From NCBI GenBank assembly GCA_016200545.1, contig JACQEO010000070.1:12663-76662 (forward strand): a stretch of 64,000 bases of DNA. The letters run 5' to 3'. Shown here one piece after another: positions 11,741-45,032 of this stretch. The notes beneath the pieces were generated by a model. The model was not told the origin of the DNA, searched no databases, and saw nothing but the letters and a program-made list of their open reading frames with translations. Position numbers and translations under genes: made by a program. The DNA is from Deltaproteobacteria bacterium (GTDB lineage Bacteria > Desulfobacterota > Binatia > UTPRO1). The stretch's first letter is position 1; every line of letters starts with the position of its first letter.

Positions 11741-11785
11741 GCCGTCCTCTGCCGCGACGCGGGCTCGCACGCTGGCGGAGGATCG

Positions 11786-13285
11786 ATGTATCTGACGTTC
11801 TTCGGCTTTCGTGAGAAGCCCTTCAATCTCACGCCCGATCCGAAGTTTCTCTACCTGAACGCGAGCTACCGCGAGGCGCTCGCGGCCCTCCGCTACGGCG
11901 TCAACGAACGCAAGGGATTCGTGTCCCTGATCGGCGACGCCGGGACCGGGAAGACGACGCTGCTCCGCCAATTGCTCGGCGAGCTCGGATCGGACGTCCG
12001 CAGCGTCCTGGTCCTCAATCCCGCGATCGGCTTCGACGAACTCCTGGTCTTCATCCTGACCGACCTCGGTCGCGCGCCGGCGCCGGGCACACCGAAGCTA
12101 CGGTTGCTCCAGGCGCTCAACGCCGAGCTGCTGGATACCCTTGCGCGCGGTGGCAACGTCGTCGTGCTGATGGACGAAGCGCAGGATCTCTCCATCCCCG
12201 TTCTGGAGGAGCTGCGGCTGCTCTCGAACCTCGAGACGGCGAAGGAGAAAATTCTACAGTTCGTTCTCGCCGGCCAGCCCGAACTCGACGCGATGCTGGC
12301 GCGCCCCGAGCTCCGCCAGCTCCGTCAGCGTGTCGCGGTGCCGGCGCGCCTGCGGCCGTTGGCGCGCGGCGAGGTCGCGGCGTACGTCGCCGCGCGCGTC
12401 GCGGCCGCCGGCGGCGACGCGCGCGGGCTCTTCACGGGGTCGGCGCTCCGGCAGCTCTATGGGTTCTCGCGCGGCGTTCCGCGTCTGGTGAACGTGGCGT
12501 GCGACAGCGCACTCGTTACCGCATATGCCGCCGGCAGACGGCTTGTCGATCGCAAGATCATGCGGGAGGCCATGAAGGATCTACGCCACGGTCGGTACCA
12601 GCGGCCCATGGCAGCGGTCTGGCGGACGCGGGTGGCGACGGTCGCGATCGCAGGGACGGTCGGCGCGTTGGTGGGCCTCATGGTGTCGCGACGTGCCGTT
12701 GGACCGCTCGTTCTGGGGCGCGTGCCGGCGGCGCCGAGTCCATCGGCCACACGCGCGCTGCTAGCGGCGGCGCCCGCTCCGCGCCCCACAGCGGAGGCCA
12801 CGCCGCCCGGCGAGCTCGCCGACGAAGATCACGGCGCCGCACCCGTGCTGGTGGCACCCCCGTTTCCGGTGCCGGGTACGCTCGTAGTCTCGCTGCCCGT
12901 GATGCCCACTTCCGTGGTTGCCGCCCCCACGGTGGACCGAACGGCGGTGGTCGAACCGCCGCGGCCTCGAGCGCTGGCGTCGCCACGCGTGCCACCTTCC
13001 GAGGGCACCGCCGGCGTCGTCGATGCCGCGGGACCCGCGCCCACGGGCGGCAGCGGCGACGAGCGATGGATCTTCGTGCAAGCGGGAGACGACCTCTCAC
13101 ACATCGCGCGGCGCAACTACGGCCACGTCACGCTGCCGCTGCTGGAGGCCATTCAGCGGGCGAACCCCGCGCTCGTCGATCGCGATCGGTTGAGCATAGG
13201 GCAGGCGATTCTCTTGCCCCCGGATCCACACCCCGCGAGCGCGCCGATGCCGGGCGGAGATGCTACCACCGGCGCCGCCCCGTGA
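11786..13285 (+). CDS. ExeA-like AAA ATPase with TM segment, Pro/Ala-rich linker and C-terminal LysM-like domain (PEP-CTERM-locus secretion ATPase type)
   Basis: MYLTFFGFREKPFNLTPDPKFLY, Walker A GDAGTGKTTLL, Walker B VVLMDEAQ. C-terminus FVQAGDDLSHIARRNYG..IGQAILLP is LysM-like. Confidence 0.85.
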   Translation: MYLTFFGFREKPFNLTPDPKFLYLNASYREALAALRYGVNERKGFVSLIGDAGTGKTTLLRQLLGELGSDVRSVLVLNPAIGFDELLVFILTDLGRAPAPGTPKLRLLQALNAELLDTLARGGNVVVLMDEAQDLSIPVLEELRLLSNLETAKEKILQFVLAGQPELDAMLARPELRQLRQRVAVPARLRPLARGEVAAYVAARVAAAGGDARGLFTGSALRQLYGFSRGVPRLVNVACDSALVTAYAAGRRLVDRKIMREAMKDLRHGRYQRPMAAVWRTRVATVAIAGTVGALVGLMVSRRAVGPLVLGRVPAAPSPSATRALLAAAPAPRPTAEATPPGELADEDHGAAPVLVAPPFPVPGTLVVSLPVMPTSVVAAPTVDRTAVVEPPRPRALASPRVPPSEGTAGVVDAAGPAPTGGSGDERWIFVQAGDDLSHIARRNYGHVTLPLLEAIQRANPALVDRDRLSIGQAILLPPDPHPASAPMPGGDATTGAAP

Positions 13286-13449
13286 GCCCATGACGCCCGC
13301 GCGGGCGAATAGAGCGGTTGCCATGGCATTGCGCGCTGCGGCCGTGCGTCGCTAAGCGCCGAGCGACGCCGCGCTTCCGCATCACCTGCGGACATGGTCG
13401 GGTGACCCGCCTGCACGATGCCGCACAAACGCAAGTACGGCGTGAGGGT

Positions 13450-13461
13450 GGCGGTAGCGAA
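13450..13461 (+). promoter_or_regulatory. ops/JUMPStart-like element GGCGGTAGCGAA
   Basis: The first 10 nt equal the E. coli RfaH ops core GGCGGTAGCG; the final TG is AA. It lies in the 330-nt gap just upstream of the NusG-paralog gene that heads the EPS operon. Relevance outside enterobacteria is unproven. Confidence 0.3.
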
Positions 13462-13584
13462 ATGGGGCGGTGCTAACGCCATGCGATCACGAACGCGGCG
13501 CCTAGGTCCTTGAGTCGCGAGGGGAAACTAAGCCCCAGACGAAGCTGAAAAAGCTGAGAGGTTTCGCGACCCTCCGATCTCCTA

Positions 13585-13600
13585 TGGCATTGAACTTGCT
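13585..13600 (+). promoter_or_regulatory. Sigma-54 (RpoN) promoter, -24/-12 elements
   Basis: TGGCAT-TGAAC-TTGCT is an exact TGGCAY-N5-TTGCW match on the coding strand, directly ahead of the NusG-paralog ORF. The predicted TSS (about 13610) leaves only a very short leader before ATG 13617. Confidence 0.6.
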
Positions 13601-13616
13601 GCCATCCACTGTGCCG

Positions 13617-14126
13617 ATGCCTCCCGTGACCGCCAGTCAGAAAGAATGGTTCGTCCTCCGCAGTAAGCCCCGTAAGGAGGATTGCGCGGTCCGCCATCTC
13701 CTCCGTCGCGGCATCGAGGTGTTCTTTCCTCGCATCCTCGAGCCGGTAGGTATCGGCAGCGGGTGGGCGACCGTCCCACTCTTTCCGGGGTATCTGTTCG
13801 TCGAGATCACGCTGCACCAGGATTTCCATCAGATCATCTGGACGCCGGGTGTGAAGGGGTTCGTCGCCTTCGGAGATATTCCGACGGCGATTCAACCCGG
13901 GGTCGTGCACTTCTTGCGGCAAGAGGGTGGTTCCGACGGCGTAATCCGCCCGACCCGGCGCTTTCATATCGGCGACCGGGTGCAGATCAAGCGCGGTCCG
14001 TTCGCAGGATTGATCGGCATCATCGAAAAGCCGTGTCCCGAACACGGGCGGATTCGGGTCCTGATGGACTTCCTGCGGCACGGTACGGCAGTCGAGGTTC
14101 CAGTCACGGCCATCGGTTTGATGTAG
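13617..14126 (+). CDS. Specialised NusG paralog (NGN plus KOW; RfaH/UpxY/LoaP-like antiterminator)
   Basis: KEWFVLRSKPRKE...PLFPGYLFVE (NGN) and GDRVQIKRGPFAGLIGIIEK (KOW). The track start 13584 lies inside the sigma-54 element, so ATG 13617 (or GTG 13626) is preferred. Confidence 0.8.
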   Translation: MPPVTASQKEWFVLRSKPRKEDCAVRHLLRRGIEVFFPRILEPVGIGSGWATVPLFPGYLFVEITLHQDFHQIIWTPGVKGFVAFGDIPTAIQPGVVHFLRQEGGSDGVIRPTRRFHIGDRVQIKRGPFAGLIGIIEKPCPEHGRIRVLMDFLRHGTAVEVPVTAIGLM

Positions 14127-20020: not shown

Positions 20021-20054
20021 GGAGCCTGATGAGGAACCCGGAGTCGTGTCACTG

Positions 20055-21725
20055 ATGGCGTCGAATGCTCGCATGGTGGTGGTCGGCCTCGACGGCGCGA
20101 CCTTCCAACTCATCAAGCCGTGGGTCGAGGCGGGACAGCTGCCGACGTTCGCGCGCCTCCTCGCGCAGGGGGCACACGCCGATCTGCGCAGCACGCTGCC
20201 CGCGCTCACGCCCCCGGCTTGGACGTCTGCCGCCACCGGGAAGAACCCGGGCAAGCACAACATCTACAACTTCTACAAGGTGAGCGACGGCGGCACGGGC
20301 AAGTTGCCACTCACGCCCGCGGACCTGCGCAGCCGTCGCCTCTGGAACATCGCGAACGCATACGGCAAGCGTGCCGGCGTCGTGCACCTGCCGCTCACGT
20401 ATCCCTGTGAGCGCCTCGACGGCTTCGTCGTCTCCGGCATCATGACGCCGAAGGGCGTCGAAGACTACACGTTCCCGCTCGAGCTGCGCGACGAGTTGCG
20501 CGCGCACGTCGACGGCTACCGCTTCGACGTCGACGCCGACGCGCTCAAGATCGGCGATCTGCGCGCGTTCGCCGCCGACGCGTTCGAGCTGCAGCGCATC
20601 CAGACGGCGGAGACGCTCTACCTGCTCGAGCACAAGGAGTGGGATCTCCTCTGGGTGATGTTTCACACGCTCGACAAGGTGCAGCATTTCTTCTGGCATC
20701 TCATGGATCCGGCGCACCCGGCGTACCCAGGGGCGAGCGACCTCGGCGACACCATCCTGCGATTCCACCAGCTGCTCGACCAGACGCTCGCCGACATCCT
20801 CGCCAGGCTCGACGACGACACCGGCCTCTTGGTGATGTCCGATCACGGCTCGTGTCCCCTCGAGTCGTACTTCCTGGTCATGAACTGGCTCGAGGACACC
20901 GGGTTTCTCCGCATGAAGGGCGGGTCGCGTTCGCCGCTCCAACGGGCGCTCGGGGGAATGGGCCTGGAAGCGCGTGGCGTCGTGCAGACGCTGCGCCGTG
21001 CCGGACTCGGGTGGGTGCCGCGGCTCGTGCCGTCGCGCCTCAAGGCGCAGGTGCCGCTCGCGCGCGCCTCGTTCGCCCGCATCGCGCCGCACATCGACTG
21101 GGCGGGGACGCGCGTCTACTGCCCGTCGGCACCGGGCAGCGGCCTGCGCGTCAATCTGCGCGGACGCGAGGTGCAGGGCACGGTCGCGCCCGAGGAGTAC
21201 GACCGCGTCTGCGAGGAGGTGCGCATACGGCTGCTCGCGATCGTCGACCCGAAGACCGGCGGCCGCGTCGTGCGCGCCGTGCACCGTCGTGAAGAGATCT
21301 ACGCCGGTCCGCACGTCGACAACGCCCCCGACCTCCTCGTCGAGACGGCGGATCCGTACTGCCTCATTGAAGGCATGGGTCCGGCGGCGATCGTGCAAGC
21401 CGGACAGAACGACGGCGAGCGTACCGGCAATCACTTGCGCGAAGGGATTTTCCTGCTCGCGGGCGCCGGCGTCCGGCGCGGCGTCGCGCTTCCAACGCTC
21501 GACATCTGCGACGTCGCGCCGACACTGCTTCACCTGCTCGACCTCCCCGTTCAAGAGGACATGGACGGCGCCGTCGCGCAGGCGGCGCTGACGCCGCGGT
21601 TCCTCGCCTCGCGTCCCGTGCGCACCGACCAGCTACCGCCGCCGCCGCAGATCGCGGCCGTCGAGATGAGTGACCACGACCGCCAGGCGATCGAGGGTAT
21701 GCTCGAGGGACTCGGCTACCTGTGA
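20055..21725 (+). CDS. Alkaline-phosphatase-superfamily enzyme A1 (type I phosphodiesterase/nucleotide pyrophosphatase-like), LGYL tail
   Basis: MVVVGLDGATFQLI...LPALTPPAWTSAATGKNPGKHNIY and MSDHGS motifs. No signal peptide. Ends ...AIEGMLEGLGYL. Alternative starts are 20046 and 20073. Confidence 0.8.
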   Translation: MASNARMVVVGLDGATFQLIKPWVEAGQLPTFARLLAQGAHADLRSTLPALTPPAWTSAATGKNPGKHNIYNFYKVSDGGTGKLPLTPADLRSRRLWNIANAYGKRAGVVHLPLTYPCERLDGFVVSGIMTPKGVEDYTFPLELRDELRAHVDGYRFDVDADALKIGDLRAFAADAFELQRIQTAETLYLLEHKEWDLLWVMFHTLDKVQHFFWHLMDPAHPAYPGASDLGDTILRFHQLLDQTLADILARLDDDTGLLVMSDHGSCPLESYFLVMNWLEDTGFLRMKGGSRSPLQRALGGMGLEARGVVQTLRRAGLGWVPRLVPSRLKAQVPLARASFARIAPHIDWAGTRVYCPSAPGSGLRVNLRGREVQGTVAPEEYDRVCEEVRIRLLAIVDPKTGGRVVRAVHRREEIYAGPHVDNAPDLLVETADPYCLIEGMGPAAIVQAGQNDGERTGNHLREGIFLLAGAGVRRGVALPTLDICDVAPTLLHLLDLPVQEDMDGAVAQAALTPRFLASRPVRTDQLPPPPQIAAVEMSDHDRQAIEGMLEGLGYL

Positions 21726-22559: not shown

Positions 22560-24215
22560 ATGAAGGTCTTGGTGATCGGTCTCGACGGCATGACCTTCGA
22601 CGTCGCCCGCCCCCTGATGGACGCCGGCGAGATGGCGACGCTCGCCTCGCTCAAGCGTCGCGGCGTGAGCGCGACGTTGCAGTCGACGTATCCGCCGATC
22701 TCGGCGCCCGCATGGGTCACCTTCCTGACCGGCAACAACCCGGGCCGCCACGGGATCTACAACTTTCAGAACCTCGATCTGTCGCGCTACTCGAGCTTCA
22801 GCGAGAACCTCGTCAACTCGACGTATTTCCGCGGCAAGACGCTCCTCGATCATGCCGGCGCCGAAGGGAAGCGCATCCTCGCGTACCGTATCCCGCTCAC
22901 GTATCCCGCGTGGGCGATCAACGGGCTCCTCGTCTCCGGCCCGCCGACGCCCGACCGCAAGCGCGCCTACACCATGCCGGCCGATCATGCGAACGAGCTG
23001 CCGCCGATGACGTTGCTGTCACACGACGAGTTGGCGCGCGCCAAGCGGGCAGGGGACATCGCGGCGATCGATGCCTGCAACGCCTACGAGCTGAAGGTCA
23101 TGGATCAAATCACCCGGTGCGCGATCGACGACGGCACCGACGTGATCGTCACCTTCACCGGCATTCCCGACGGCCTGCATCACTCGTTCTGGCACCTCCA
23201 CGATCCCGCGTCGCCGTTCCATGATCCGGCGGCGTCGGCGCACGACAAGAACGTGATCCGGCGCTGGTACGTCGAGATCGACCGCATGATTGCCGGGTGG
23301 CTCGCGGGTCTCGGCGAGGAGTGGGCGGTGGTCGTCCTCTCCGATCACGGCGGCGGCCCGGCCCCGACGCGGTATCTGAACGTCAACCACGTGCTCGCCG
23401 AGCGAGGATACTTGAAGCCTACGAGCGCTTCACGCGCCCAGCTCGCGCGGCTGGTGAGCCGTCAGGTGAACGCGCTGCGACGCCGCATACCCGGCAAGGT
23501 GTGGCTGAAAAACCATCTGCCGGCGGTTCTCAGATCGCAGGTGCGCCAGCTGCGCAATGGCACAGGCCGGATCGAATGGGGTGCGACCCGCGCCTATGCG
23601 GTGCCGATCTTCTTTCCGGTGACGGGCATCAACCTGAACGTGCGCGGCCGTCAGCCACAGGGCATCGTCGAGCCAGGCGCGGAGTACGAGCGCGTGCGGG
23701 ACGAGATCATGACCATAGTCGCGGCGCTGCGTGATCCGACGACCGGCGCGGCACTCTGCCGTCGCGTGCTCCGCAAGGAAGAGGTGCTCGCGGGTCCCCA
23801 CCTCGACAACGTCCCCGACATCTTGCTCGTCACCCTCGAGGGCGTCGACGGCGGTCACGACGTCGACCGGCTGCTCGCCGCCGTGCCCGAGGCGACATTG
23901 CGCAACGTCAGCGGCTCGCACACGATGGAGGGCGTCTTCTTCGCGGCCGGCGCGCCGTTCCAGGTGGGACGGTGCCTCGAGGCCGTCGACCTGGGCGACA
24001 TCCTGCCGACGGTGCTCCATCTCGCGGGGGTCGCCATTCCCGACGACATCGACGGCGGCGTCCTCACCGAGGCGCTGGCGCCGGAGTACCTCGCCGCCCA
24101 CCCGGTGGCGACGACCAGCGCGCGCGCCGGTGGCGGTGGCGATGGCGACGCACTCTCGGCGGGCGAAGAGCACGAGATGCGGAAATTCCTCCAAGACCTT
24201 GGCTACATCGAGTAA
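22560..24215 (+). CDS. Alkaline-phosphatase-superfamily enzyme A2, LGYIE tail
   Basis: In-frame ATG 22560 (MKVLVIGLDGMTFDV). YPPISAPAWVTFLTGNNPGRHGIY and LSDHGG motifs. Ends ...EMRKFLQDLGYIE. Confidence 0.8.
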   Translation: MKVLVIGLDGMTFDVARPLMDAGEMATLASLKRRGVSATLQSTYPPISAPAWVTFLTGNNPGRHGIYNFQNLDLSRYSSFSENLVNSTYFRGKTLLDHAGAEGKRILAYRIPLTYPAWAINGLLVSGPPTPDRKRAYTMPADHANELPPMTLLSHDELARAKRAGDIAAIDACNAYELKVMDQITRCAIDDGTDVIVTFTGIPDGLHHSFWHLHDPASPFHDPAASAHDKNVIRRWYVEIDRMIAGWLAGLGEEWAVVVLSDHGGGPAPTRYLNVNHVLAERGYLKPTSASRAQLARLVSRQVNALRRRIPGKVWLKNHLPAVLRSQVRQLRNGTGRIEWGATRAYAVPIFFPVTGINLNVRGRQPQGIVEPGAEYERVRDEIMTIVAALRDPTTGAALCRRVLRKEEVLAGPHLDNVPDILLVTLEGVDGGHDVDRLLAAVPEATLRNVSGSHTMEGVFFAAGAPFQVGRCLEAVDLGDILPTVLHLAGVAIPDDIDGGVLTEALAPEYLAAHPVATTSARAGGGGDGDALSAGEEHEMRKFLQDLGYIE

Positions 24216-25290: not shown

Positions 25291-27252
25291 ATGTGCGGCA
25301 TCGTCGGCGTATGGCGTGGCGCAGGCGGCGCCCCGGTTGCGGAGCAGACGCTGCGGCGGATGTGTGCCGCGATCGTGCACCGCGGGCCGGACGATGAAGG
25401 CGTGGTCGTCGACGGCGCGTTCGGGATGGGGATCCGGCGACTCAGCATCAACGACCTCGCCGGCGGCCACCAACCACTCGGCAACGAGGACGGCTCCGTA
25501 TTGGTGGTGTGCAACGGCGAGATCTACAACTCGCCCGCCCTGCGACGCGATCTCGAGGCGCGCGGCCATCACCTGCCCTCGCACTCCGACGTCGCGGTGA
25601 TCCCGCACCTCTACGAGGAGTGCGGCGAGGACTTCGTGGCGGAGCTCGACGGCATGTTCGCGCTCGCGCTCTGGGATCGCCGCCGACGTCGCCTCGTGCT
25701 GGCGCGTGATCGCCTCGGTATCAAGCCGCTCTACGTCGGCGAGCGCGGCGGCGCGGTCGGCTTTGCGTCGGAGGTGACGGCGCTGGTCGCGGACGGCTGG
25801 TGCGATGCGCTCGACTTCGCGAGCCTGCACCACTACCTGGCGCTCGGCTACGTCCCCGCACCCGGCAGCATCTTCGCCGGCGTCCGCAAGCTCGAGCCGG
25901 GTACGCAGCTCACGCTCGAGGAGGAACGCTCGCCGGTCACGCGCCGCTACTGGGAACTGCGGTTCGCGCCCGTCGCGGCGACCCGCAGCGACGACGACTA
26001 CGCTGACGAGGTGCTCACGACCCTGCGTGGGGCGGTGAAGAGCCACCTCCTCTCGGACGTGCCGGTCGGCGTGTTCCTCTCCGGGGGCGTCGACTCGAGC
26101 GGCCTCGTGGCACTCATGAGTGAGGTTGCCGGGCAGCGGATCCAAACCTTCTCGGTCGGCTTCGAGGAGAAGAGCTTCGACGAGCTCGACCTGGCGCGAG
26201 CAGTGGCGCGCCGATACGGGACCGATCATCACGAGATTGTCGTCCGCCCGGATGCGCTGCGGATCTTACCGGCGCTCGTGCATCACTTCGGCGAGCCATT
26301 TGCGGACTCATCGGCCGTGCCCGTCTACTACGTCTCCGAGCTTGCGCGTCGATCCGTGAAGGTCGTGCTCTCGGGCGAGGGGGGCGACGAGGTGTTCGGC
26401 GGCTACGAGACCTACCTCGCGGGGAAGTACGCGGCGCTGTATCGGCGTCTGCCGGACGTGATCGGCCACACCCTCATTCCGGCGCTGGTCGATCGCCTGC
26501 CGGTTTCACACGCACGCGTCAGCCTCGACTACAAGGCGAAACGCTTCGTACACGGTGCGCATCTGCCGCTTGCAGACGGGCACTTCTGGTGGAAGGTCGT
26601 GCTCTCGGAAGCGGTGCAATCCGACCTGTGCGTCGGCCCGGCGCGCAACGGCGCCCTCGAGACGCCGGGGCTCTTCCGTGCCGCCGCCGAGCGCGCCGGC
26701 AGCAACGACTGGCTCGCCCGCCTGCAGGCGATCGATACGCACGTGTACCTTCCGGACAACATTCTCACCAAAGCGGACCGCATGAGCATGGCGCATTCGC
26801 TCGAGGCGCGCGTACCGTATCTCGACCGCGCGCTGGTGGAGCTGGCCGCTCGCCTCCCGAGCAGTCTCAAGCTTCGCGGCTTCACGAAAAAGTACGTCTT
26901 AAAGCACGCGCTCCGCCGTCACGTGCCCGCCGAGATCCTGCGCGCCAAGAAGCGCGGCTTCAACGTTCCGGTGGCGTCGTGGCTGCGCGGCGAGCTGCGC
27001 GACATGCTTCACGACGTGCTCGCACCCGCGGCCCTGCGGCGGATGGGGCTCTTCGAGCCGGGGTACGTTCAACGATTGATCGAGGAGCACGTCGGCATGC
27101 GGTCGGATCACAGCCGGCCCCTCTGGACCTTGCTCGTGTTCACGATTTGGCACGAGGAGTGGCGGCAGAGGCGCGCGACGGTCGAGCGCACTCCGTCCCC
27201 CTCACTTGCCCCGACTTGCTCGCCGTCGTCATCGGCGGGCCTTCGCACTTGA
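25291..27252 (+). CDS. asnB: Asparagine synthetase family amidotransferase, copy 2
   Basis: MCGIVGVW N-terminus, SGGVDSS PP-loop, LPDNILTKADRMSMAHSLEARVPYLD. Confidence 0.9.
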   Translation: MCGIVGVWRGAGGAPVAEQTLRRMCAAIVHRGPDDEGVVVDGAFGMGIRRLSINDLAGGHQPLGNEDGSVLVVCNGEIYNSPALRRDLEARGHHLPSHSDVAVIPHLYEECGEDFVAELDGMFALALWDRRRRRLVLARDRLGIKPLYVGERGGAVGFASEVTALVADGWCDALDFASLHHYLALGYVPAPGSIFAGVRKLEPGTQLTLEEERSPVTRRYWELRFAPVAATRSDDDYADEVLTTLRGAVKSHLLSDVPVGVFLSGGVDSSGLVALMSEVAGQRIQTFSVGFEEKSFDELDLARAVARRYGTDHHEIVVRPDALRILPALVHHFGEPFADSSAVPVYYVSELARRSVKVVLSGEGGDEVFGGYETYLAGKYAALYRRLPDVIGHTLIPALVDRLPVSHARVSLDYKAKRFVHGAHLPLADGHFWWKVVLSEAVQSDLCVGPARNGALETPGLFRAAAERAGSNDWLARLQAIDTHVYLPDNILTKADRMSMAHSLEARVPYLDRALVELAARLPSSLKLRGFTKKYVLKHALRRHVPAEILRAKKRGFNVPVASWLRGELRDMLHDVLAPAALRRMGLFEPGYVQRLIEEHVGMRSDHSRPLWTLLVFTIWHEEWRQRRATVERTPSPSLAPTCSPSSSAGLRT

Positions 27253-30299: not shown

Positions 30300-31598
30300 A
30301 TGGGTTACCTGGACTACCTGCGTCACGGGAAGAACATGTTTTCGAAGAAGGGCGCCATGCCGGTCTACATGGTGTACTTCATCACCGACGCCTGCAACGC
30401 CAAGTGCAAGCATTGCCTCCTCGCCGACGGCGCGCATCCCGGCTGGGAGACGCCGACGATGGAGTTCAAGCGCAAGGAGCTCACGCTCGAAGAGGTCGAC
30501 AAGGTCACTGCGAGCATGGGCAAGAGCCTCATGTTCCTTCTGCCGACTGGCGGCGAGCCGTTCCTGCGCAAGGACATCGGTGAGATCGTCAAGATCTTCT
30601 ACAAGAACACCGGCGTGCGGAACGTCGGCATCCCAACCAACGGCAGCACCACCTCACGGACGCTGAAGATCGTCGAGGACGTGCTCAAGTCGTGCCCCGA
30701 TCTCGACTTCGGCATCGACGTGTCGCTCGACGGCATCGGCGCGCTGCACGACGAGATCCGCGTCTTCCCGGGCCTCTTCGAGCGCTCGATCCAGACCTAT
30801 CGCGAGCTGAAGAAGCTCTCGAAGCACTACCCGAAGCTCAACGTCAACGTCGAGACGACGGTCTCGTCGCACAACGACAAGCATCTCTTCGAGAACTACG
30901 AGTACTTCCGCCGTGAGCTCCAAGTCGACAATGTCTTCACCTTGCTCACGCGCGGCAGCCCCAAAGAGTCGATCGCGAAGTTCTTCGACGTGAAGCGATA
31001 CGAAGAGTACGCCGACGTCATCGAGAAGGACATGAAGAGCGGCGCGCTCTCCGGGTACAACACGTTCCCCTTCGCCGATTTCATCAACGCCAAGCGGATC
31101 GTGCGGCATCGGCTGATCGCCGAGATCGCGAAGACGAACACCTACCAGATCCCGTGCTATGCCGGCAGCCTCGGCTCCTGCATGTTCGCCAACGGCGACA
31201 TCTATCCCTGCGAGCTCCTCATCGATCGCAAGCTCGGGAACGTCCGCGAGAGCGGCTACGACTTCAAGAAGATCTGGTACGGTAAGAAGGCCGACGAAGC
31301 GCGGACGTTCATTCGTGACACCAAGTGCTTCTGCACCTACGAGTGCTTCCTCACCGTCAATATCCTCTTCAATCCGCGCATGATGCCGAAGATCCTGCGG
31401 GAGTGGGGCAGCCTGAAGATGCGCAAAGCGCTCCGTAAGCTGACCGGGACGAAGGTGACCGAGTCGGCCGTCGGCGCCCACGGCGGCAAGGGCCACGCCT
31501 GCATCAACGGCGCCATTCAGCAGCACAACGCCACGTTGCTTAACGGCGCCGCGCAGCCGAACGGTGCGATCAAGCCGGAGGAAGAGGCGCGGCTGTAG
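30300..31598 (+). CDS. Radical SAM enzyme with SPASM/twitch-like C-terminal Cys cluster
   Basis: CX3CX2C = ITDACNAKCKHC. Downstream Cys cluster is CYAGSLGSCMFANGDIYPCE...CFCTYEC. Lys-rich and visibly lower GC (about 55% in sampled 60-nt stretches versus about 68% next door). Confidence 0.85.
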   Translation: MGYLDYLRHGKNMFSKKGAMPVYMVYFITDACNAKCKHCLLADGAHPGWETPTMEFKRKELTLEEVDKVTASMGKSLMFLLPTGGEPFLRKDIGEIVKIFYKNTGVRNVGIPTNGSTTSRTLKIVEDVLKSCPDLDFGIDVSLDGIGALHDEIRVFPGLFERSIQTYRELKKLSKHYPKLNVNVETTVSSHNDKHLFENYEYFRRELQVDNVFTLLTRGSPKESIAKFFDVKRYEEYADVIEKDMKSGALSGYNTFPFADFINAKRIVRHRLIAEIAKTNTYQIPCYAGSLGSCMFANGDIYPCELLIDRKLGNVRESGYDFKKIWYGKKADEARTFIRDTKCFCTYECFLTVNILFNPRMMPKILREWGSLKMRKALRKLTGTKVTESAVGAHGGKGHACINGAIQQHNATLLNGAAQPNGAIKPEEEARL

Positions 31599-37071: not shown

Positions 37072-37210
37072 AGGCGCGGGTCGCCGCCGTGGACGATCGT
37101 ACGTTGCGGGCGCTGCCGAATGCGTTTATGGTTTGGAGGTTTCGCAGTCTCATCCGCCGTCACCACCTTACCGGGCGGCCTCGTACCGACATGATGGAGG
37201 AGCGATCGCG

Positions 37211-38602
37211 TTGACGCAGAAAGTTGTCGTCATCGGTCTCGATTCGGCGCCGCCGCGCCTGATGTTCGACGTCTTTCGCAACGAGATGCCGACCCTCGCC
37301 GGGCTCGTCGAGCGCGGCGCCCACGGCCGTCTCGAAAGCACGAATCCGCCGATCACCGTTCCGGCCTGGACCTCGATGATGTCGAGCAAGGATCCGGGAC
37401 AGCTCGGGTTCTACGGCTTTCGAAACCGCAAGGATCATTCATACGACGGCTACGCGTTCGCCAACTCCGCGCTCGTGCGTGAGCCACGGCTCTGGGATCT
37501 TCTCGGCGAGGCGGGCAAACGCTCGATCATCCTCGGCGTTCCGCAGACGTACCCGCCGCGCCCGCTGAACGGTGAGATGGTGACCTGTTTCCTCACTCCC
37601 TCGACCAAGGCGCAGTACACGTATCCGGAGAGCCTGAAGGCGGAGGTGGAGCGTGTTGCCGACGGCTACGTGCTCGACGTCGACGACTTCCGCACGCCCC
37701 ACAAGGAGGCGCTGCTCGAGCGCGTGTACACGAAGACCCGCAAGCACTGGGCGGTCGCCAGGCACATGATCGCGACCCGCGAGTGGGACTACTTCATGAT
37801 GGTCGAGATGGGGCTCGACCGCATTCACCACGGCTTCTGGAGCTACATGGATGCGGAGCACCGGAAGTACGAGCCCGGCAACAAGTTCGAGCAGGCGATC
37901 CGCGACTACTACCGCTACCTCGACGGCGAGCTCGCGAGTCTGCTCGCGCTCGCGCCCGCCGACGCGCTGGTGCTGCTCGTCTCCGACCACGGCTCGAAGC
38001 GGATGGAGGGCGGCATCTGCTTCAACGAGTGGCTGATCCGCGAGGGCTACCTGACACTCAAGGATCCGCCGCGCACGCCGACGCCGATCGGCAAGGTCGC
38101 CATCGACTGGTCGCGGACGAAGGCATGGGGCGACGGGGGCTACTACGGTCGCTGTTTCATGAACGTGAAGGGCCGAGAGCCTGAAGGTATCGTCGATCCG
38201 AAAGACTACGAGCGCGTACGCAGCGACCTCGTCGCCGGCATCGAGGCGATCGTCGACGACCAGGGACGCCCGATCGGCTCACGCGCCCATCGACCGGAGG
38301 ACATCTACCGCGCCGTGAACGGCGTCGCACCCGATCTCATCGTGTACTTCGGCGATCTCAACTGGCGCTCGGTCGGCGCCGTCGGCATGGACTCGATCTA
38401 CACCTTCGAGAACGACACCGGCCCCGACGAGGCGAACCACGATTGGTACGGCATCTTCGTGCTGTCGTCGCCGGCGGGGCCGGTGCCGCTCACCGGAGAC
38501 GTCGGCGACGTTTCGATCTACGATATCGCGCCGACCGTGCTCCAGCACTTCGGTTGTCCGGTGCCGGCCGACATGATCGGCCGCTCGCTGCTTCCGAGCT
38601 GA
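37211..38602 (+). CDS. Alkaline-phosphatase-superfamily enzyme A3 (divergent; no LGY tail)
   Basis: TTG 37211 lies 8 nt after GGAGGAG (the track start 37133 has no SD). KVVVIGLDSAPPRLMF..NPPITVPAWTSMMSSKDPGQLGFYGF and VSDHGS motifs. Ends ...GRSLLPS. Confidence 0.75.
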   Translation: MTQKVVVIGLDSAPPRLMFDVFRNEMPTLAGLVERGAHGRLESTNPPITVPAWTSMMSSKDPGQLGFYGFRNRKDHSYDGYAFANSALVREPRLWDLLGEAGKRSIILGVPQTYPPRPLNGEMVTCFLTPSTKAQYTYPESLKAEVERVADGYVLDVDDFRTPHKEALLERVYTKTRKHWAVARHMIATREWDYFMMVEMGLDRIHHGFWSYMDAEHRKYEPGNKFEQAIRDYYRYLDGELASLLALAPADALVLLVSDHGSKRMEGGICFNEWLIREGYLTLKDPPRTPTPIGKVAIDWSRTKAWGDGGYYGRCFMNVKGREPEGIVDPKDYERVRSDLVAGIEAIVDDQGRPIGSRAHRPEDIYRAVNGVAPDLIVYFGDLNWRSVGAVGMDSIYTFENDTGPDEANHDWYGIFVLSSPAGPVPLTGDVGDVSIYDIAPTVLQHFGCPVPADMIGRSLLPS

Positions 38603-38619
38603 GAGGATCCGGGCGCGCC

Positions 38620-39579
38620 GTGCGGCACGTCGCCGTCGACATCGTCACCGGCTTTCTCGGGAGCGGCAAGACGACGCTCCTTCGCCACGTCCTCGAGCAC
38701 GGCCTCAAGGGCAAGCCGGTCGCCCTCGTCGTGAACGAGATCGGCGAGGTTGGCATCGATGGCCAGGTCGTGACTGGCCTCAACTACGTCGAGAAGATGG
38801 TCGAGCTCTCGAGCGGCTGCATCTGCTGCTCGATCGACGAGTACCGCTTCGACCTCGCAATCCAAGAGATCATCGAGACCGTCCACCCGCACCTCATCAT
38901 CATCGAGTCGACGGGCCTCGCCGATCCCGAGCCGCTCGCCTACCGGGTGAAGGCCGCGGGCCTGAACCTCGATGCGGTCATCACCGTCGTGGATGCCGGC
39001 AACGTCGAGCGCTTCCTCGGGGAGACGGAGGTTGCGACGGCGCAGATCGGCGCCGCCGACTTTCTCGTGGTGAACAAGATCGACCTCGTCGGCGCCGACG
39101 CCTTGACGCGCGTCGAGCGACGGCTCCGCAAGCTCAACGCGCGTGCCGTCCAGTTTCGCAGCGTGCGCGGCGCGATCGATTCCGAGGTGCTCTTCGCGAC
39201 CGGCGTTGCGAGCTATCGCGACCGCGCCCGCGAGCCCAGGGCCGCCTCCGACCATCTGCATCGGGATGCATTCGGCTCGTTTCTCTACCGCAGCGCGGTC
39301 GAGCTCGATCAACCGGCCTTCGAGCGCGTGCTCGAGCGGCTGCCGGACGACGTCATCCGCGCCAAAGGGATCGTGCGGCTCCTCGGGCGTGACTGGCACT
39401 GCCTGTTCAACGTCACCTGCGGCCGGACGGAGCTCGGCTGGCTGAAACTTCCGGATGATCACCTGGAGAACCAAGCGGTCTTCATCGGTCGCAACCTCGA
39501 CCGGCACCGCGCCGGTATTCTCGAGGCGCTTCGCCGCTGCGAGCGCCATCCCGAGCATCGACAGGGAGAGTCGCGATGA
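38620..39579 (+). CDS. COG0523 (CobW/YjiA/ZigA-like) G3E GTPase, putative metallochaperone
   Basis: GTG 38620. P-loop TGFLGSGKTTLL. CXCC metal motif SSGCICCS. C-terminal CobW_C-like domain. Confidence 0.85.
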   Translation: MRHVAVDIVTGFLGSGKTTLLRHVLEHGLKGKPVALVVNEIGEVGIDGQVVTGLNYVEKMVELSSGCICCSIDEYRFDLAIQEIIETVHPHLIIIESTGLADPEPLAYRVKAAGLNLDAVITVVDAGNVERFLGETEVATAQIGAADFLVVNKIDLVGADALTRVERRLRKLNARAVQFRSVRGAIDSEVLFATGVASYRDRAREPRAASDHLHRDAFGSFLYRSAVELDQPAFERVLERLPDDVIRAKGIVRLLGRDWHCLFNVTCGRTELGWLKLPDDHLENQAVFIGRNLDRHRAGILEALRRCERHPEHRQGESR

Positions 39580-39704
39580 ACGCCACCCCGAAACGGCCGG
39601 ACGAGCCGGCCGAGCAGCCCCCCGCCTCCGAGCCGACCGAGGGCTACTCGCCCGAGGAAGAAGAGGAAGTGCAGAAGCGCCTGGAGGATTTGGGCTACAT
39701 CTGA
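39576..39704 (+). CDS. 42-aa ORF encoding only an acidic linker plus LGYI tail (not in ORF track)
   Basis: ATG overlaps the COG0523 stop (ATGA), with GGGAGAG 6 nt upstream. Translation is MNATPKRPDEPAEQPPASEPTEGYSPEEEEEVQKRLEDLGYI. It matches the C-terminal tails of A1, A2, A4 and the sulfatase-fold enzyme. Confidence 0.55.
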   Translation: MNATPKRPDEPAEQPPASEPTEGYSPEEEEEVQKRLEDLGYI

Positions 39705-41449: not shown

Positions 41450-43333
41450 ATGCGTGTGGGCGGGCGGACGCCGTTCGCGGGCGCGGTCGCGGGCGCGACG
41501 CTCGCGGCGCTGGTGGTGGGAATTGGTGAGGCGCTCGTCGTCAGCGTCGAGCGCCACCTCGGTATCGATACGGGCCTGCTGTTCTTCGCCATCCTGTTCT
41601 ATGGACTCACGGGCGTCGTGGCCGGGATCGCGTTCGGCGTCGCGCTCCCTCTGATCGGCGCGCGGCGCGGTGGCAGCGCGTACGCGCTCGCCGGCGCCCT
41701 CACGTTCAGCGCCCTGGTCACCGTGATCGGGCGGTTCCGCGTCTTCCGCGACGTGCTGCACGAGACGTTCGACGGGCAGGCGATCTCGCCGCTCGCCTTC
41801 CAACTCGGCTCGCTGGTGGTGGCTCTCGTGCTCGCCGCGCTTGCCTTCGCGGTTCTGCGCGCCGTCGGGCGGCGCGAGGGCGCGGCGACGTCGCTCGTCA
41901 CCGCGCTCGGCATTCTCGTCGTCGGTGTCGGCGTGAGCGGCGGCACAATGCTCGTCCGCGGCGCGCCGCCGTCGGTCGCGCACTCGCCGCTGGCGAGCCG
42001 CGGCACCGCGCACGGACCGAGCGTCATCCTCGTCATGGTCGACACGCTGCGTGCCGATCACCTCTCGTGCTACGGCTACGACGCCATCCGCACGCCGGCG
42101 ATCGACGCCCTCGCCGCCGACGGCACGCGCTTCGCGCACGCGTACGCGCAGGCTTCCTGGACCCGACCGTCGGTGGCGACGATCCTGACGTCGCTCTATC
42201 CGTCGTCGCACAAGGCGATTCACAAGTCGGACATCCTTCCGGACGCGGTCACGACCTTGCCCGAGGTGCTGCAGGCGGCCGGTTACCGTACGATCGGATT
42301 CGCCAACAACATCAACGTCGCGCCGCTGTTCAACTTTCAACAAGGCTTCGACGAGTACTACTTCCTCGAGCCGGCGTTCTTCTTCGGCGCCACGGAGTCG
42401 GCGGCGCAGCTCACGCTCTACAACCAGCTGCGCCTGATCCGCGAACGCTATCTCTCGCGGGTGAAGCACGTCGAGAACTACTATCAACCCGCCGAGATCG
42501 TGACCGAGCGAGGATCGCGCTGGATCGCCGATCGGCCAGCCGACGGTCCCTTCTTCATGTTCCTGCACTACATGGACGCCCACGACCCGTACTTCACGCA
42601 CCCGTGGAACGGCGAGGCATTGGCGCGGGTGGCGAACCCCAATCCGAGCTGCGCGCTCGCGGAGCGCTACCGCGCCGCGTACGACGGCGCGATCGTCTAT
42701 CTCGACGAACAGATCGGCCGTCTCGTCGCCGGGCTGAAGGCGCGCGGTATGTACGACGATACGATGATCGTGCTCACCGCCGACCACGGGGAGGAGTTCT
42801 GCGAGCATGGCGGCTGGTGGCACGGCCAGACACTCTACGACGAGCAACTCGCGGTGCCGCTGATCGTGAAAGCGCCGCGCGGGGGACCGGCCGGCGTCGT
42901 CAACGACGCCATGGTGGCGAGCCTCGATATTGCGCCGACGATCATCGCCGCCGCGGGCGCACAGGCTCCCGCGGCCATGGTCGGGCGGCCCTTGTCGCTC
43001 GCGGCCGGCGCGCCGGCGCCGCGCGATCACGCATTCGCGGAGTCGGACCTCGAAGGCAACGTGCTGCAGGCATATCGCGGCGAGGGTTGGAAGTTCATTC
43101 AAGCAAATCCCGGCAATCCGCGTGGTCTGCCGATCCGCCAGCTCTTCGAGGTGGCGGGGGATCCAGGCGAACATCACGACCTCGCGGCATCCCGGCAGGA
43201 CGAGGTCGCAACCCTCGCGACCCGTCTCGCGACCGTGCAGAGCCGTGCGCTGGCGCGTGCCGTCGACGGCAGCGAGACGGCGATCGACAGCGCCACCGAA
43301 GAGCGCCTACGGGCGCTCGGCTACGTCAACTGA
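41450..43333 (+). CDS. Membrane-anchored sulfatase-fold (PF00884-like) enzyme with LtaS/EptA/OpgB-type architecture, LGYVN tail
   Basis: About 5 N-terminal TM segments, then VILVMVDTLRADHLSCYGY. The nucleophile region reads QASWTRPSVATILTSLYP (T-x-P-S, not C/S-x-P-x-R). TADHGEEF motif. Ends ...EERLRALGYVN. Confidence 0.8.
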   Translation: MRVGGRTPFAGAVAGATLAALVVGIGEALVVSVERHLGIDTGLLFFAILFYGLTGVVAGIAFGVALPLIGARRGGSAYALAGALTFSALVTVIGRFRVFRDVLHETFDGQAISPLAFQLGSLVVALVLAALAFAVLRAVGRREGAATSLVTALGILVVGVGVSGGTMLVRGAPPSVAHSPLASRGTAHGPSVILVMVDTLRADHLSCYGYDAIRTPAIDALAADGTRFAHAYAQASWTRPSVATILTSLYPSSHKAIHKSDILPDAVTTLPEVLQAAGYRTIGFANNINVAPLFNFQQGFDEYYFLEPAFFFGATESAAQLTLYNQLRLIRERYLSRVKHVENYYQPAEIVTERGSRWIADRPADGPFFMFLHYMDAHDPYFTHPWNGEALARVANPNPSCALAERYRAAYDGAIVYLDEQIGRLVAGLKARGMYDDTMIVLTADHGEEFCEHGGWWHGQTLYDEQLAVPLIVKAPRGGPAGVVNDAMVASLDIAPTIIAAAGAQAPAAMVGRPLSLAAGAPAPRDHAFAESDLEGNVLQAYRGEGWKFIQANPGNPRGLPIRQLFEVAGDPGEHHDLAASRQDEVATLATRLATVQSRALARAVDGSETAIDSATEERLRALGYVN

Positions 43334-43343
43334 GCGCGGGCGC

Positions 43344-45032
43344 GTGATCGCAATCGTCGGACTCGACGGAGCCACCTGGGATCTCGCCGAGCCCTTCATG
43401 GATGCCGGCGACATGCCGGCGCTGCGCCGTCTCGTGACGGCAGGTGCGGCCGGAATCCTGCGGTCGACGACACCGCCCGTGACGTTTCCCGCGTGGTCCT
43501 CCTTCATGACCGGGGCGAATCCGGGGAAACACGGCATCTTCGATTTCAGCCGGCGCCTGCCGGGCACCTACGAGATCGCGTTCGTCGGCAGCCGTGACCG
43601 GCGGCTGCCGACGATGTGGCGCCTACTCTCGGCGGCCGGCCGCCGCGTCGCCGTGCTCGGCGTGCCGACGACATACCCACCCGAGCCGGTGAACGGCATC
43701 ATGGTCGGGGGTTTCGACAGCCCGGTCACGACCGGCATCGACGGCTCCTTCGTCCACCCGCGCGCCTTCTACGACGAGATGCGGGCGGCGGTCGGTCCGT
43801 ACACGATCACCGACTTCCAGGAACTGCGCATCGGGCCCGGATGGCACGACGCGGCGTTGCCGAAGATTCTCACCGCCGTCGACCGCAAGCGCGATCTCGC
43901 GCGCTACGTCCTCGCGCGCGAGCCCTGGGACGTTTTCATGGTGCTTTTCGGCGAGGCCGACACCACGAGCCACCATTTCTGGATGTTCGCCGATCCGCGA
44001 TCGCCGCGCTTCGACGCGTCACGCGCCGCGCGGCACCGGGGGGCGTTGCGTGACGTGTACCGTCGCCTCGACGGCGCGCTCGACGCGATCGTCGCCGCGT
44101 TGCCTGCCGACGCGACTCTGCTGGTCGCCTCCGACCACGGCTTCGGGGGCGCCGGTACGACGGTGCTGCATCTGAATCGGTGGCTCGCCGAGGCCGGCTT
44201 CCTGCGCTTCCACGCCGGCGCGCGCGCGCTTCCGGCGCGCCTGGCGCGGCAGGTACGGCGGCTCGCGCTTCTCGGCTTGCCCCGCGGCGTGCAAGAGCGG
44301 GTGGTGCGCCGCAGCGGCCGCCGGCTCGCCCGCCGACTGGAGGGCTGGTCACGGTTCGCCGCGGTCGACATGGCCCGAACGGTTGCGTTCTCGGAGGAGC
44401 TGAACTACGCGCCGAGCATCTGGCTGAACGTCCGCGGGCGCGACCCGCTCGGTGCCGTCGCGCCGGGGCGCGCGTACGACGAGCTCGTCGCGACGCTGCG
44501 CGAACGTCTCCTCGCCTGGCGTCACCCGGCGACCGGCGCGCGCATCGTACGCGCGGTGCACCGGCGCGAGGAGATCTATCGAGGTCCGTGCGTCGGCGAC
44601 GCTCCCGACCTCGTCCTCGAGCTCGCCTGCGAGGACGGCTACTCGTACGTCTGCCTCCCCAGCACCGGCGAGGAGTCGGCGGTCGTGCGCTCGCTCGCAC
44701 CTGACGAGTACGTCGCCGGCAAAGGTGGCGGCATGAACGGCAGCCACCGCGCGGCGGGCCTCTGGGCGCTCGCGGGTCCCGCGATCTCGGCCGACGTGCA
44801 CGCCGAGGCGGCGATCACCGACGTCGCGCCGACCGTGCTCCACCTCGCCGGGCTTCCCGTACCGTCGTGGATGGACGGCGCACTTCTGCCGGGCGTCCGC
44901 GGAACGTTGACCGTCGATGCCGCGCCGCCTCCTCCACCGCGGGTCGGTGGCCAGGAGGACGACGGCGCAGGCGAGACCGAGCTCTGGCGCCGGCTGGCCG
45001 CGCTCGGCTATCTCGGCGCGGAACGGCCGTGA
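43344..45032 (+). CDS. Alkaline-phosphatase-superfamily enzyme A4, LGYL tail
   Basis: GTG 43344 (VIAIVGLDGATWDL). TPPVTFPAWSSFMTGANPGKHGIF and ASDHGF motifs. Ends ...ELWRRLAALGYLGAERP. Confidence 0.8.
   Translation: MIAIVGLDGATWDLAEPFMDAGDMPALRRLVTAGAAGILRSTTPPVTFPAWSSFMTGANPGKHGIFDFSRRLPGTYEIAFVGSRDRRLPTMWRLLSAAGRRVAVLGVPTTYPPEPVNGIMVGGFDSPVTTGIDGSFVHPRAFYDEMRAAVGPYTITDFQELRIGPGWHDAALPKILTAVDRKRDLARYVLAREPWDVFMVLFGEADTTSHHFWMFADPRSPRFDASRAARHRGALRDVYRRLDGALDAIVAALPADATLLVASDHGFGGAGTTVLHLNRWLAEAGFLRFHAGARALPARLARQVRRLALLGLPRGVQERVVRRSGRRLARRLEGWSRFAAVDMARTVAFSEELNYAPSIWLNVRGRDPLGAVAPGRAYDELVATLRERLLAWRHPATGARIVRAVHRREEIYRGPCVGDAPDLVLELACEDGYSYVCLPSTGEESAVVRSLAPDEYVAGKGGGMNGSHRAAGLWALAGPAISADVHAEAAITDVAPTVLHLAGLPVPSWMDGALLPGVRGTLTVDAAPPPPPRVGGQEDDGAGETELWRRLAALGYLGAERP

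Follow-up and report, generated by a model that had tools for sequence, protein, structure and literature searches.

The stretch of DNA analysed here, referred to as the window, comprises 64,000 nucleotides (nt) of contig JACQEO010000070.1 (positions 12,663 to 76,662, forward strand) from assembly GCA_016200545.1, a Deltaproteobacteria bacterium of the Binatia. Its GC content is about 0.67. Between positions 37211 and 39704 the window carries three adjoining genes: A3, encoding an AlkP-superfamily enzyme of the nucleotide pyrophosphatase/phosphodiesterase (NPP) type; G, encoding a COG0523-family GTPase; and a very short open reading frame (ORF), here called the mini-ORF, which overlaps the stop codon of G. 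A first-pass annotation, made from the sequence without database searches, had observed that four AlkP-superfamily paralogues of the operon end in a common C-terminal motif, that A3 stops without it, and that the mini-ORF appears to encode the missing piece as a separate peptide. We term this C-terminal module the "LGY tail" and describe its occurrence both as the end of larger enzymes and as a free-standing microprotein.

A3 (37211..38602, forward strand) begins with TTG, and reading of the sequence places a Shine-Dalgarno (SD) sequence, GGAGGAG (37196..37202, forward strand), 8 nt before this start. The 463-amino-acid (aa) product ends ...MIGRSLLPS in translation and thus does lack a tail. 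It matches PF01663 over the full length of the domain (profile positions 1-342 of 342, E=3.7e-41) and shows the metal/nucleophile pattern D...T...D-x3-H...D-H...H. Across 57-64 orthologues no variation is seen at residues D11, T49, D203, H207, D259, H260 and H410; by analogy with the family rather than by structural superposition, we take them to be the NPP two-metal site and its Thr nucleophile. The closest solved folds in a Foldseek search with a model of the orthologue P0237 were ENPP6, Xac NPP and ENPP1 (TM-score about 0.55, probability 1.0). No close characterised homologue of A3 was found: these solved structures are 12-16% identical and NCBIfam gave no match.

G (38620..39579, forward strand) has a GTG start and encodes 319 aa. 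The earlier identification of a CobW/COG0523 GTPase directly after A3 is borne out by matches to cobW (PF02492, E=2.2e-44) and CobW_C (PF07683, E=1.4e-13, residues 218-307). A Walker A motif, GFLGSGKTT, marks the protein as nucleotide-binding, and the CxCC metal-binding motif takes the form GCICC. None of the characterised COG0523 subfamilies (CobW, ZigA, YjiA/YeiR) claims G in NCBIfam, where scores of 137, 136 and 117 bits compare with cut-offs of 361, 332 and 600 bits, and from these profiles G is a generic member of COG0523. Its last nine or so codons (PEHRQGESR) hold the ribosome-binding site of the mini-ORF. Past the conserved ...CER, G has 7-15 extra residues in loci that bear the mini-ORF and 0-7 in those that lack it (L001-L014; window 39550-39579), and this extension, for example ...HRQGESR, encodes the SD sequence of the mini-ORF.

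The mini-ORF (39576..39704, forward strand) consists of 42 codons and encodes MNATPKRPDEPAEQPPASEPTEGYSPEEEEEVQKRLEDLGYI. As first described, its ATG overlaps the TGA of G (ATGA at 39576) and its SD sequence, GGGAGAG (39564..39570, forward strand), lies inside the coding end of G. The N-terminal half of the protein (residues 1-23; 39576..39644, forward strand) is Pro/Glu-rich and, save for M1, P8 and P15, variable in alignment A1 of the mini-protein family, and is disordered by AlphaFold2 (AF2) prediction. The remainder (39645..39704, forward strand) encodes YSPEEEEEVQKRLEDLGYI and the stop codon; this is the 19-residue LGY tail, which is invariant or nearly so in 46 family members.

Conservation of the mini-ORF, and its ratio of nonsynonymous to synonymous changes, had been named as checks on its reality, and both speak for it. 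Of the 14 related genome loci that reach past G, 9 have the ORF, whereas L007-L010 and L014 do not. Across the last 20 codons the protein is almost invariant in the nine loci and third positions vary freely (GTG/GTC/GTT/GTA, TTG/CTG/CTC, TCG/AGC/TCC). Pooled pN/pS is 0.13 in frame versus 1.5 and 3.1 in the shifted frames. The ATG is kept in all nine loci, as is an SD sequence (GGGAG or GGAGG) 6-10 nt before it, and the ATGA overlap is kept in seven; the mini-ORF thus looks translationally coupled to G, as had been proposed. A metagenome scan with alignment A1 returned 80 loci. In 59 of these, representing 53 distinct peptides, G lies directly 5' of the mini-ORF, and in 44 of the 59 the gene for UDP-glucose dehydrogenase (UGDH) lies directly 3'. 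A protein search with the 42-mer yielded 45 clusters, all of 39-51 aa and either unnamed or labelled "hypothetical protein". These comparisons show that the mini-ORF is a genuine gene for a conserved microprotein.

When the loci are clustered on G, the five that lack the mini-ORF form one group nested among those that bear it, and the ORF also occurs in the more distant L011 and L012, so that a single loss is the simplest history. In L015 the start and the tail are in different frames (L015:8001-9086). Because PMT_2, the flippase, A3, G and UGDH are also split in the same metagenome-assembled genome (MAG), this frameshift is most likely a sequencing error and not decay. An RNA element or terminator was considered for the region and rejected: Rfam gave no match there, no terminator was found in or near the mini-ORF, and one terminator-like site was within chance expectation. 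A loose basic-Pro motif (PKRP[DE], ERRP[DE], EKKP) occurs near the N-terminus of 84 of 138 collected free tail proteins of up to 56 aa, and free tails from contexts other than G are among those without it; in the minis coupled to G, this motif could be a lineage signal or a second binding site.

The consensus of the LGY tail is an ungapped 19-mer, Y-[ST]-x-E-E-E-x-x-[VI]-x-x-R-L-x-x-L-G-Y-[ILVM], located 0-1 residues from the C-terminus, and the end of the window mini-protein, given above, conforms to it. At most one residue follows the LGY motif in 127 of 129 collected proteins. A profile of the mini-protein family gave 87 matches at E<=1e-3 among 1.84 billion cluster representatives, and in 85 of these the match ends at the C-terminus or 1-2 residues from it. 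With a profile of 70 tails, 728 clusters were matched at E<=1; the best 120 of the 728 are all 39-70 aa long and unannotated ("hypothetical protein"). On these alignments, conservation of the tail is far beyond chance.

The four tailed paralogues of the first-pass annotation were all read in the sequence, each with the L-x-x-LGY[ILV] core, and all lie on the forward strand. Three belong to PF01663. The first (20046-21725, E=2.4e-38) carries the tail MSDHDRQAIEGMLEGLGYL at 21666..21725, ending ...IEGMLEGLGYL, and the second (22560-24215, E=3.1e-33) carries LSAGEEHEMRKFLQDLGYIE at 24153..24215, ending ...MRKFLQDLGYIE. The third (43344-45032, E=1.2e-40) has the tail core ELWRRLAALGYLGAERP at 44979..45032, ending ...LWRRLAALGYLGAERP, which its orthologues keep. 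The remaining host (41450-43333) is a membrane sulfatase-type enzyme with transmembrane segments and a PF00884 domain (E=3.6e-54); its short tail core, EERLRALGYVN at 43298..43333, is kept in orthologues from L002-L014. In hosts of the sulfatase type the motif is usually reduced to its second half, (R/Q)-x-L-x-x-LGY-x. In the window enzyme five hydrophobic segments precede the catalytic domain (41450-42020), as in LtaS/EptA-type enzymes. The sulfatase-type domain and its short tail may therefore be periplasmic; the other tailed enzymes carry no signal peptides.

Outside the window the tail is found on PF01663 AlkP enzymes (P0068, P0095, P0122, P0124), on a truncated AlkP-like family (P0060, P0104, P0107), on bona fide kinases of adenosine 5'-phosphosulfate (APS) of about 205 aa (such as L071:5461-6078; PF01583, E=6e-62), on shorter APS-kinase-like proteins (P0118, P0089), on small ribbon-helix-helix-like (RHH) proteins (P0070, P0121, P0319, P0261), and on many free-standing proteins of 31-70 aa. 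Single loci hold 4-5 tails. As judged from its hosts, the LGY tail is a portable C-terminal module, found mostly in loci for glycans or exopolysaccharide (EPS).

The first-pass annotation knew of no description of such an arrangement, and we found none. Pfam and NCBIfam contain no family matching the window mini-peptide, and over 46 members they gave only sub-threshold chance matches (Skp1, 0.098). A profile search of PDB with the 70 tails found no chain with the motif, the sole match being by chance to the Skp1 C-terminus, FTPEEEEEVRR. Literature searches turned up no paper with the LGY motif strings, and none that was relevant for COG3379 or for an APS kinase with a C-terminal extension. The LGY tail family is thus undescribed in the sources searched. 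A resemblance to the HbYX-type docking motif of proteasome activators was rejected: the residue before the Tyr is an invariant Gly, and a large subfamily ends ...LGYVE, with the Tyr antepenultimate. Two free tails of another lineage, 44 and 68 aa long (L020:2692-2826 and the contig of P0111), adjoin an AAA_26+DRTGG protein and an ADP-forming acyl-CoA synthetase/GNAT pair, on short contigs that hold no AlkP gene.

The relationship between A3 and the tail takes several forms. Most A3 orthologues are tail-less and about 462 aa long. In two others, P0237 (67% identical to A3) and P0245 (65%), the tail is fused to the enzyme after a 5-residue linker (...DGSRAYSSEDEEEVRRRLEDLGYI) and reads ...YSSEDEEEVRRRLEDLGYI; no COG0523 gene was found in the DNA fetched for their loci, L018 and L019. 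The mini-protein shares 15 of 19 tail residues with this A3-orthologue tail and 6-9 of 19 with the tails of the paralogues in the window. The proposal that the mini-ORF encodes the missing tail of A3 as a separate peptide is upheld by these fused forms. It had also been asked whether A3 orthologues elsewhere have a tail or an adjoining tail gene, and here too examples were found. In L083 a 51-aa tail gene lies 7 nt past the stop codon of an A3 orthologue (67% identical), and in L111 a tail gene directly 3' overlaps the A3 orthologue by 4 nt and is followed by another AlkP gene. The reverse order occurs in L107 and L108, where a 49-aa tail gene lies 5' of a tail-less PF01663 enzyme with a TGATG overlap.

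Partners other than a bare tail may occupy the same position. Twelve loci with an APS kinase that carries the tail were collected; in 10 of the 12 an A3 orthologue (48-62% identical) is on the same contig, directly upstream of the kinase where this could be read. In L105 and L109 a gene for an RHH protein with the tail abuts a tail-less sulfatase with zero spacing, just after a flippase gene. In the window, A3 is followed by the COG0523 gene and then by the tail gene. Taken together, A3-type enzymes occur with the tail fused, with it encoded next door, or without it, and we infer that the window shows the gene-fission (split-tail) state of A3, with G interposed.

A3 lies directly 5' of G in 19 of the 19 metagenome loci with G and the mini-ORF that have at least 1.5 kb upstream of G (18 by automatic test and L030 on inspection). 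All pairwise combinations of the three genes occur: A3 with G but no mini-ORF in five loci of one clade, A3 with a tail gene alone in L083 and L111 as described, and G with the mini-ORF but no A3 directly upstream in at least five loci (L012, L047, L055, L067, L086). A protein of 263 aa, P0056, reads in frame from a COG0523 N-terminal GTPase domain into the mini-protein (...KEKPSMAEHRPE...LGYVE) and has no CobW_C domain; it may have arisen naturally by deletion and fusion, or else be an artefact of assembly.

The module of A3 and tailed APS kinase is seen in L071:3967-7613 and also in L054, L059, L062, L069, L076, L084, L087, L091 and L104; in L071 and L091 it is followed by a sulfatase-type enzyme with a short tail. 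This company suggests that A3-type enzymes may act in sulfation-related chemistry, on APS, 3'-phosphoadenosine 5'-phosphosulfate (PAPS) or 3'-phosphoadenosine 5'-phosphate (PAP). No APS kinase was found in the window or in its relatives L001-L017. The RHH proteins with the tail that lie between a flippase gene and a tail-less sulfatase are 70 aa long (L105:8001-9632, L109:2663-3337), and in L110:1661-1867 a free tail gene is followed by a gene for an RHH protein with the tail. In other A3 orthologues (P0218, P0219, P0230, P0236, P0239-P0244) the LGY tail is replaced by short basic aromatic/hydrophobic peptides, such as KKGLFGKLFGRG, PGFWKRILPFGDS, WRRLWKRFSG and GARVKQWWRG. These resemble the membrane-targeting sequences of MinD and FtsA and hint that A3-type enzymes may work at the inner membrane face.

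The interpretation that we put forward, tentatively and at somewhat less than an even chance taken as a whole, combines fission of the tail from A3 with docking of the LGY tail on AlkP-superfamily domains. The tail would be a docking peptide, a helix with a terminal LGY-hydrophobic hook, that binds the catalytic domain non-covalently: in cis or between paralogues where it is fused, and in trans where it is free or carried by a small partner. In the window, A3 would be bound by the free tail, which might also connect it with G or with the tailed paralogues of the EPS assembly line. The COG0523 gene, placed between the catalytic gene and the tail gene, would supply the ribosome-binding site of the latter, and G itself would most likely be a GTPase that inserts metal into A3 without involvement of the tail. 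Binding to the AlkP domain is favoured by the repeated tolerance of fission, by purifying selection on the detached tail, and by the position of tail donors beside tail-less AlkP genes; docking in trans would explain both why fission is tolerated and why small tail genes are coupled to tail-less AlkP genes. The broader proposition, that the LGY tail is a widespread portable docking peptide wiring AlkP and sulfatase-type enzymes, APS kinase, RHH proteins and, in Binatia, COG0523 into glycan-modification complexes, with free microproteins of 40-50 aa serving as trans-acting subunits or adaptors for tail-less enzymes such as A3, we regard as plausible but less than even in likelihood.

Single-chain AF2 runs, read for pLDDT (predicted local distance difference test) and secondary structure, are suggestive of docking and not conclusive. 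In a chimera of A3 and the mini-protein, a helix is predicted over PEEEEEVQKRLED, followed by a non-helical LGYI; the tail-helix block has a pLDDT of 85 and the linker falls below 50. Several observations weigh against the docking interpretation. In the natural fusion P0237 the pLDDT of the tail is only 66-78. The tail helix is not strikingly amphipathic: its hydrophobic moment of 0.35 is reached by 27% of shuffles, and an amphipathic tail helix was for that reason dropped as a candidate feature. Some free tails adjoin no AlkP gene on their short contigs (L020, L112), and G and the mini-ORF are kept together in the five or more loci without A3 upstream. Since one Binatia clade has lost the mini-ORF and kept A3 and G, the free tail is dispensable there. 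Finally, the MinD-like basic ends of A3 orthologues suggest that the C-terminal appendage could be a localisation device, which fits a third-party partner equally well.

Such a third party, a hub on the EPS machinery, is the main rival to docking on the AlkP domain, although we consider it rather unlikely. The tail would recruit AlkP paralogues, APS kinase and the RHH regulator to a shared scaffold, which could be a membrane component of EPS synthesis such as the flippase, a PMT_2-type transferase or a co-polymerase, and the free microprotein would adjust this recruitment, either by competing for the scaffold site or by occupying it. The presence of the tail on at least four unrelated host families and the 4-5 tails per locus are what a hub predicts, flippase or PMT_2 genes are recurrent neighbours (window, L018, L105, L109), and the basic amphipathic ends that stand in for the tail in some A3 orthologues point to an appendage that sets localisation. 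A hub leaves unexplained, however, why small tail genes show translational coupling to tail-less AlkP or sulfatase genes in particular and why the detached tail remains under strong purifying selection after fission. No candidate scaffold was identified, and a single scaffold is hard to reconcile with a tail that, given the five N-terminal hydrophobic segments, may be periplasmic in the sulfatase-type host and cytoplasmic in the others. The first-pass annotation had itself offered, beside a docking tag for the GTPase, "another shared partner" or a split subunit for A3, and it is these latter alternatives that the evidence favours. Taken as a general rule, its suggestion of a COG0523 docking tag finds no support. 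In that version the tail would be recognised by G, or by P-loop NTPases generally, with the free peptide an adaptor, regulator or competitor of G. The link between G and the mini-ORF is indeed close: beyond the ATGA overlap (7 of 9 loci) and the SD sequence inside the 3' end of G (9 of 9), the C-terminal extension of G is confined to loci with the mini-ORF, G is directly upstream of it in all 59 G-bearing metagenome loci, and the pair persists in the five or more loci without A3 directly upstream, which speaks for the tag. The loose basic-Pro motif is common to the G-coupled minis, and in other loci it is APS kinase, likewise a P-loop enzyme, that has the tail fused to it in the same position after A3. 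Yet most tail loci outside this lineage have no COG0523 gene in the 10-21 kb read (L018, L019, L071, L105, L107), neither the APS kinase hosts nor the RHH hosts are zinc enzymes, the mini-ORF has been lost from a clade that keeps G and tailed paralogues, and the sole fusion of G to a tail (P0056) is truncated and looks like a deletion or an assembly artefact. As tails are abundant in fetched DNA without COG0523 and occur on non-zinc hosts, the LGY tail is probably not primarily a COG0523 client tag; we consider that role improbable, and a lineage-specific link between G and the mini-protein possible.

Two further explanations carry much less weight. The invariant Tyr-Ser/Thr and the Glu run could form a sulfation or phosphorylation site, serviced by the adjacent APS kinase, through supply of PAPS, and by AlkP or sulfatase enzymes, in which case the microprotein would be a modified regulatory or carrier peptide. 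The pattern Y-[ST]-x-EEE is like acidic contexts of Tyr sulfation or of CK2-type phosphorylation, and tails do co-occur with APS kinase and sulfatase-family genes. This comparison is one of sequence resemblance, and no sulfotransferase or protein kinase was found beside the tails; sulfatase-type hosts keep only the RLxxLGY half, and the absence of APS kinase from the window and L001-L017 counts against it as well, so that we hold it to be very improbable. The notion that the mini-ORF is a non-functional relic of the A3 tail, or a chance ORF, draws on the long stop-free stretches common in this GC-rich DNA and on the one clade without it. The conservation data have already effectively refuted it: pN/pS is 0.13 in this frame only, the start codon and SD sequence are conserved, 53 distinct G-coupled versions and hundreds of clusters exist, and the mini-ORF is retained where G is only 57-70% identical.

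Returning to docking on AlkP-superfamily domains, several known systems offer partial parallels. SHOCT (PF09851) is a very short domain of unassigned function that occurs mainly at the C-terminus of many unrelated proteins and for which oligomerisation or nucleic-acid binding has been proposed (Eberhardt et al. 2013, PMC3581485). The LGY tail is likewise a very short C-terminal module on unrelated hosts. It differs in being an ungapped 19-mer fixed at the extreme C-terminus and associated with the AlkP superfamily and glycan loci, and there is no sequence relationship: no Pfam model, including SHOCT, matches the 46 mini-proteins at E<=10. In fission and fusion pairs of the "Rosetta stone" type, occurrence as a fusion in some genomes and as separate genes in others is a classic signature of physically interacting parts. 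The LGY tail follows this pattern, being joined to A3 in certain genomes and encoded by its own neighbouring gene in others. Unlike in the usual pairs, the detached part amounts to just some 20 ordered residues, unrelated hosts carry it too, and a third gene, G, has come to lie in between.

Encapsulin cargo-targeting peptides and the encapsulation peptides of microcompartments are short, conserved, portable terminal peptides behind a flexible linker, shared by several enzymes per locus. The LGY tail resembles them in being terminal, lying behind a linker, being common to several enzymes of a locus and being portable. It is strongly acidic, however, and no shell or encapsulin gene was found among the window genes scanned, and the encapsulation reading was rejected on these grounds; to our knowledge, those targeting systems do not include peptides encoded by genes of their own. 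A short C-terminal appendage after a linker also recalls the membrane-targeting sequences of MinD and FtsA, which the ends of some A3 orthologues resemble. With a net charge of -5 the LGY tail is not expected to bind anionic membranes, and a membrane-targeting reading of it was likewise rejected. In the known pairs of COG0523 metallochaperone and client (ZNG1-METAP1, ZigA, the YeiR/YjiA family) there is a parallel in that G adjoins a two-metal hydrolase, A3, as a plausible client; unlike these pairs, the LGY tail occurs mostly without COG0523. We know of no COG0523 system in which a microprotein is translationally coupled or clients are tagged by a tail, and a literature search on COG0523 with alkaline phosphatase found no such case. 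None of the systems compared includes the motif, and we rate the LGY tail family as an undescribed case among portable terminal docking peptides and split-gene microproteins.

The finding would define a large family of conserved bacterial microproteins, at present labelled "hypothetical protein" or not called at all, and with it a new C-terminal peptide module, portable and not represented in Pfam, NCBIfam or PDB. Cytoplasmic NPP-like and sulfatase-like enzymes crowd EPS loci, and the tail would mark which proteins, among AlkP paralogues, APS kinase, RHH and COG0523, are intended to act in concert. For the COG0523 family the chief open question is which clients its members serve; A3 would be a candidate client, and the mini-protein a possible adaptor, for an orphan GTPase. 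Given the fusion and fission series, a synthetic 21-mer would allow a direct test of the interaction hypothesis. The 21-mer from the C-terminal part of the mini-protein is TEGYSPEEEEEVQKRLEDLGYI, and a tryptic peptide of the protein is RPDEPAEQPPASEPTEGYSPEEEEEVQK.

Domain scans show that the three genes lie within a Wzx/Wzy-type EPS locus spanning about 10 kb to 46 kb of the window. Its 5' part includes a sigma-54 response regulator, an AAA_22 ATPase and a NusG-like protein, followed by Wza, Wzz/GNVR, Wzy_C and GT4 genes. Then come two AlkP genes, a deacetylase, an asparagine synthase, Bac_transf, GT2, radical-SAM/SPASM, a second GT2, YdjM and ICMT, and after these PMT_2, the flippase, A3, G, the mini-ORF and UGDH. 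The membrane sulfatase-type enzyme, a further AlkP gene and GT4 make up the 3' part. The order PMT_2, flippase, A3, G, mini-ORF (where present), UGDH and, further on, sulfatase-type enzyme and AlkP is common to 15 related genome loci. The closest relatives bear MAG labels such as Candidatus Binatia or "delta proteobacterium", and L013 is 97% identical.

The window contains two asparagine-synthase paralogues (5311-7188 and 25291-27252), and the regulator, AAA_22 ATPase and NusG-like protein lie at 10325-14126, 5' of the EPS genes. We take the paralogues and this regulatory set to be typical of EPS loci of the exosortase/PEP-CTERM type; no exosortase search was made. The radical-SAM/SPASM protein within the EPS locus (30300-31598) has an Asn/Gly/Ala-rich C-terminal extension, and its gene is kept beside the ICMT-like gene and G in L012.

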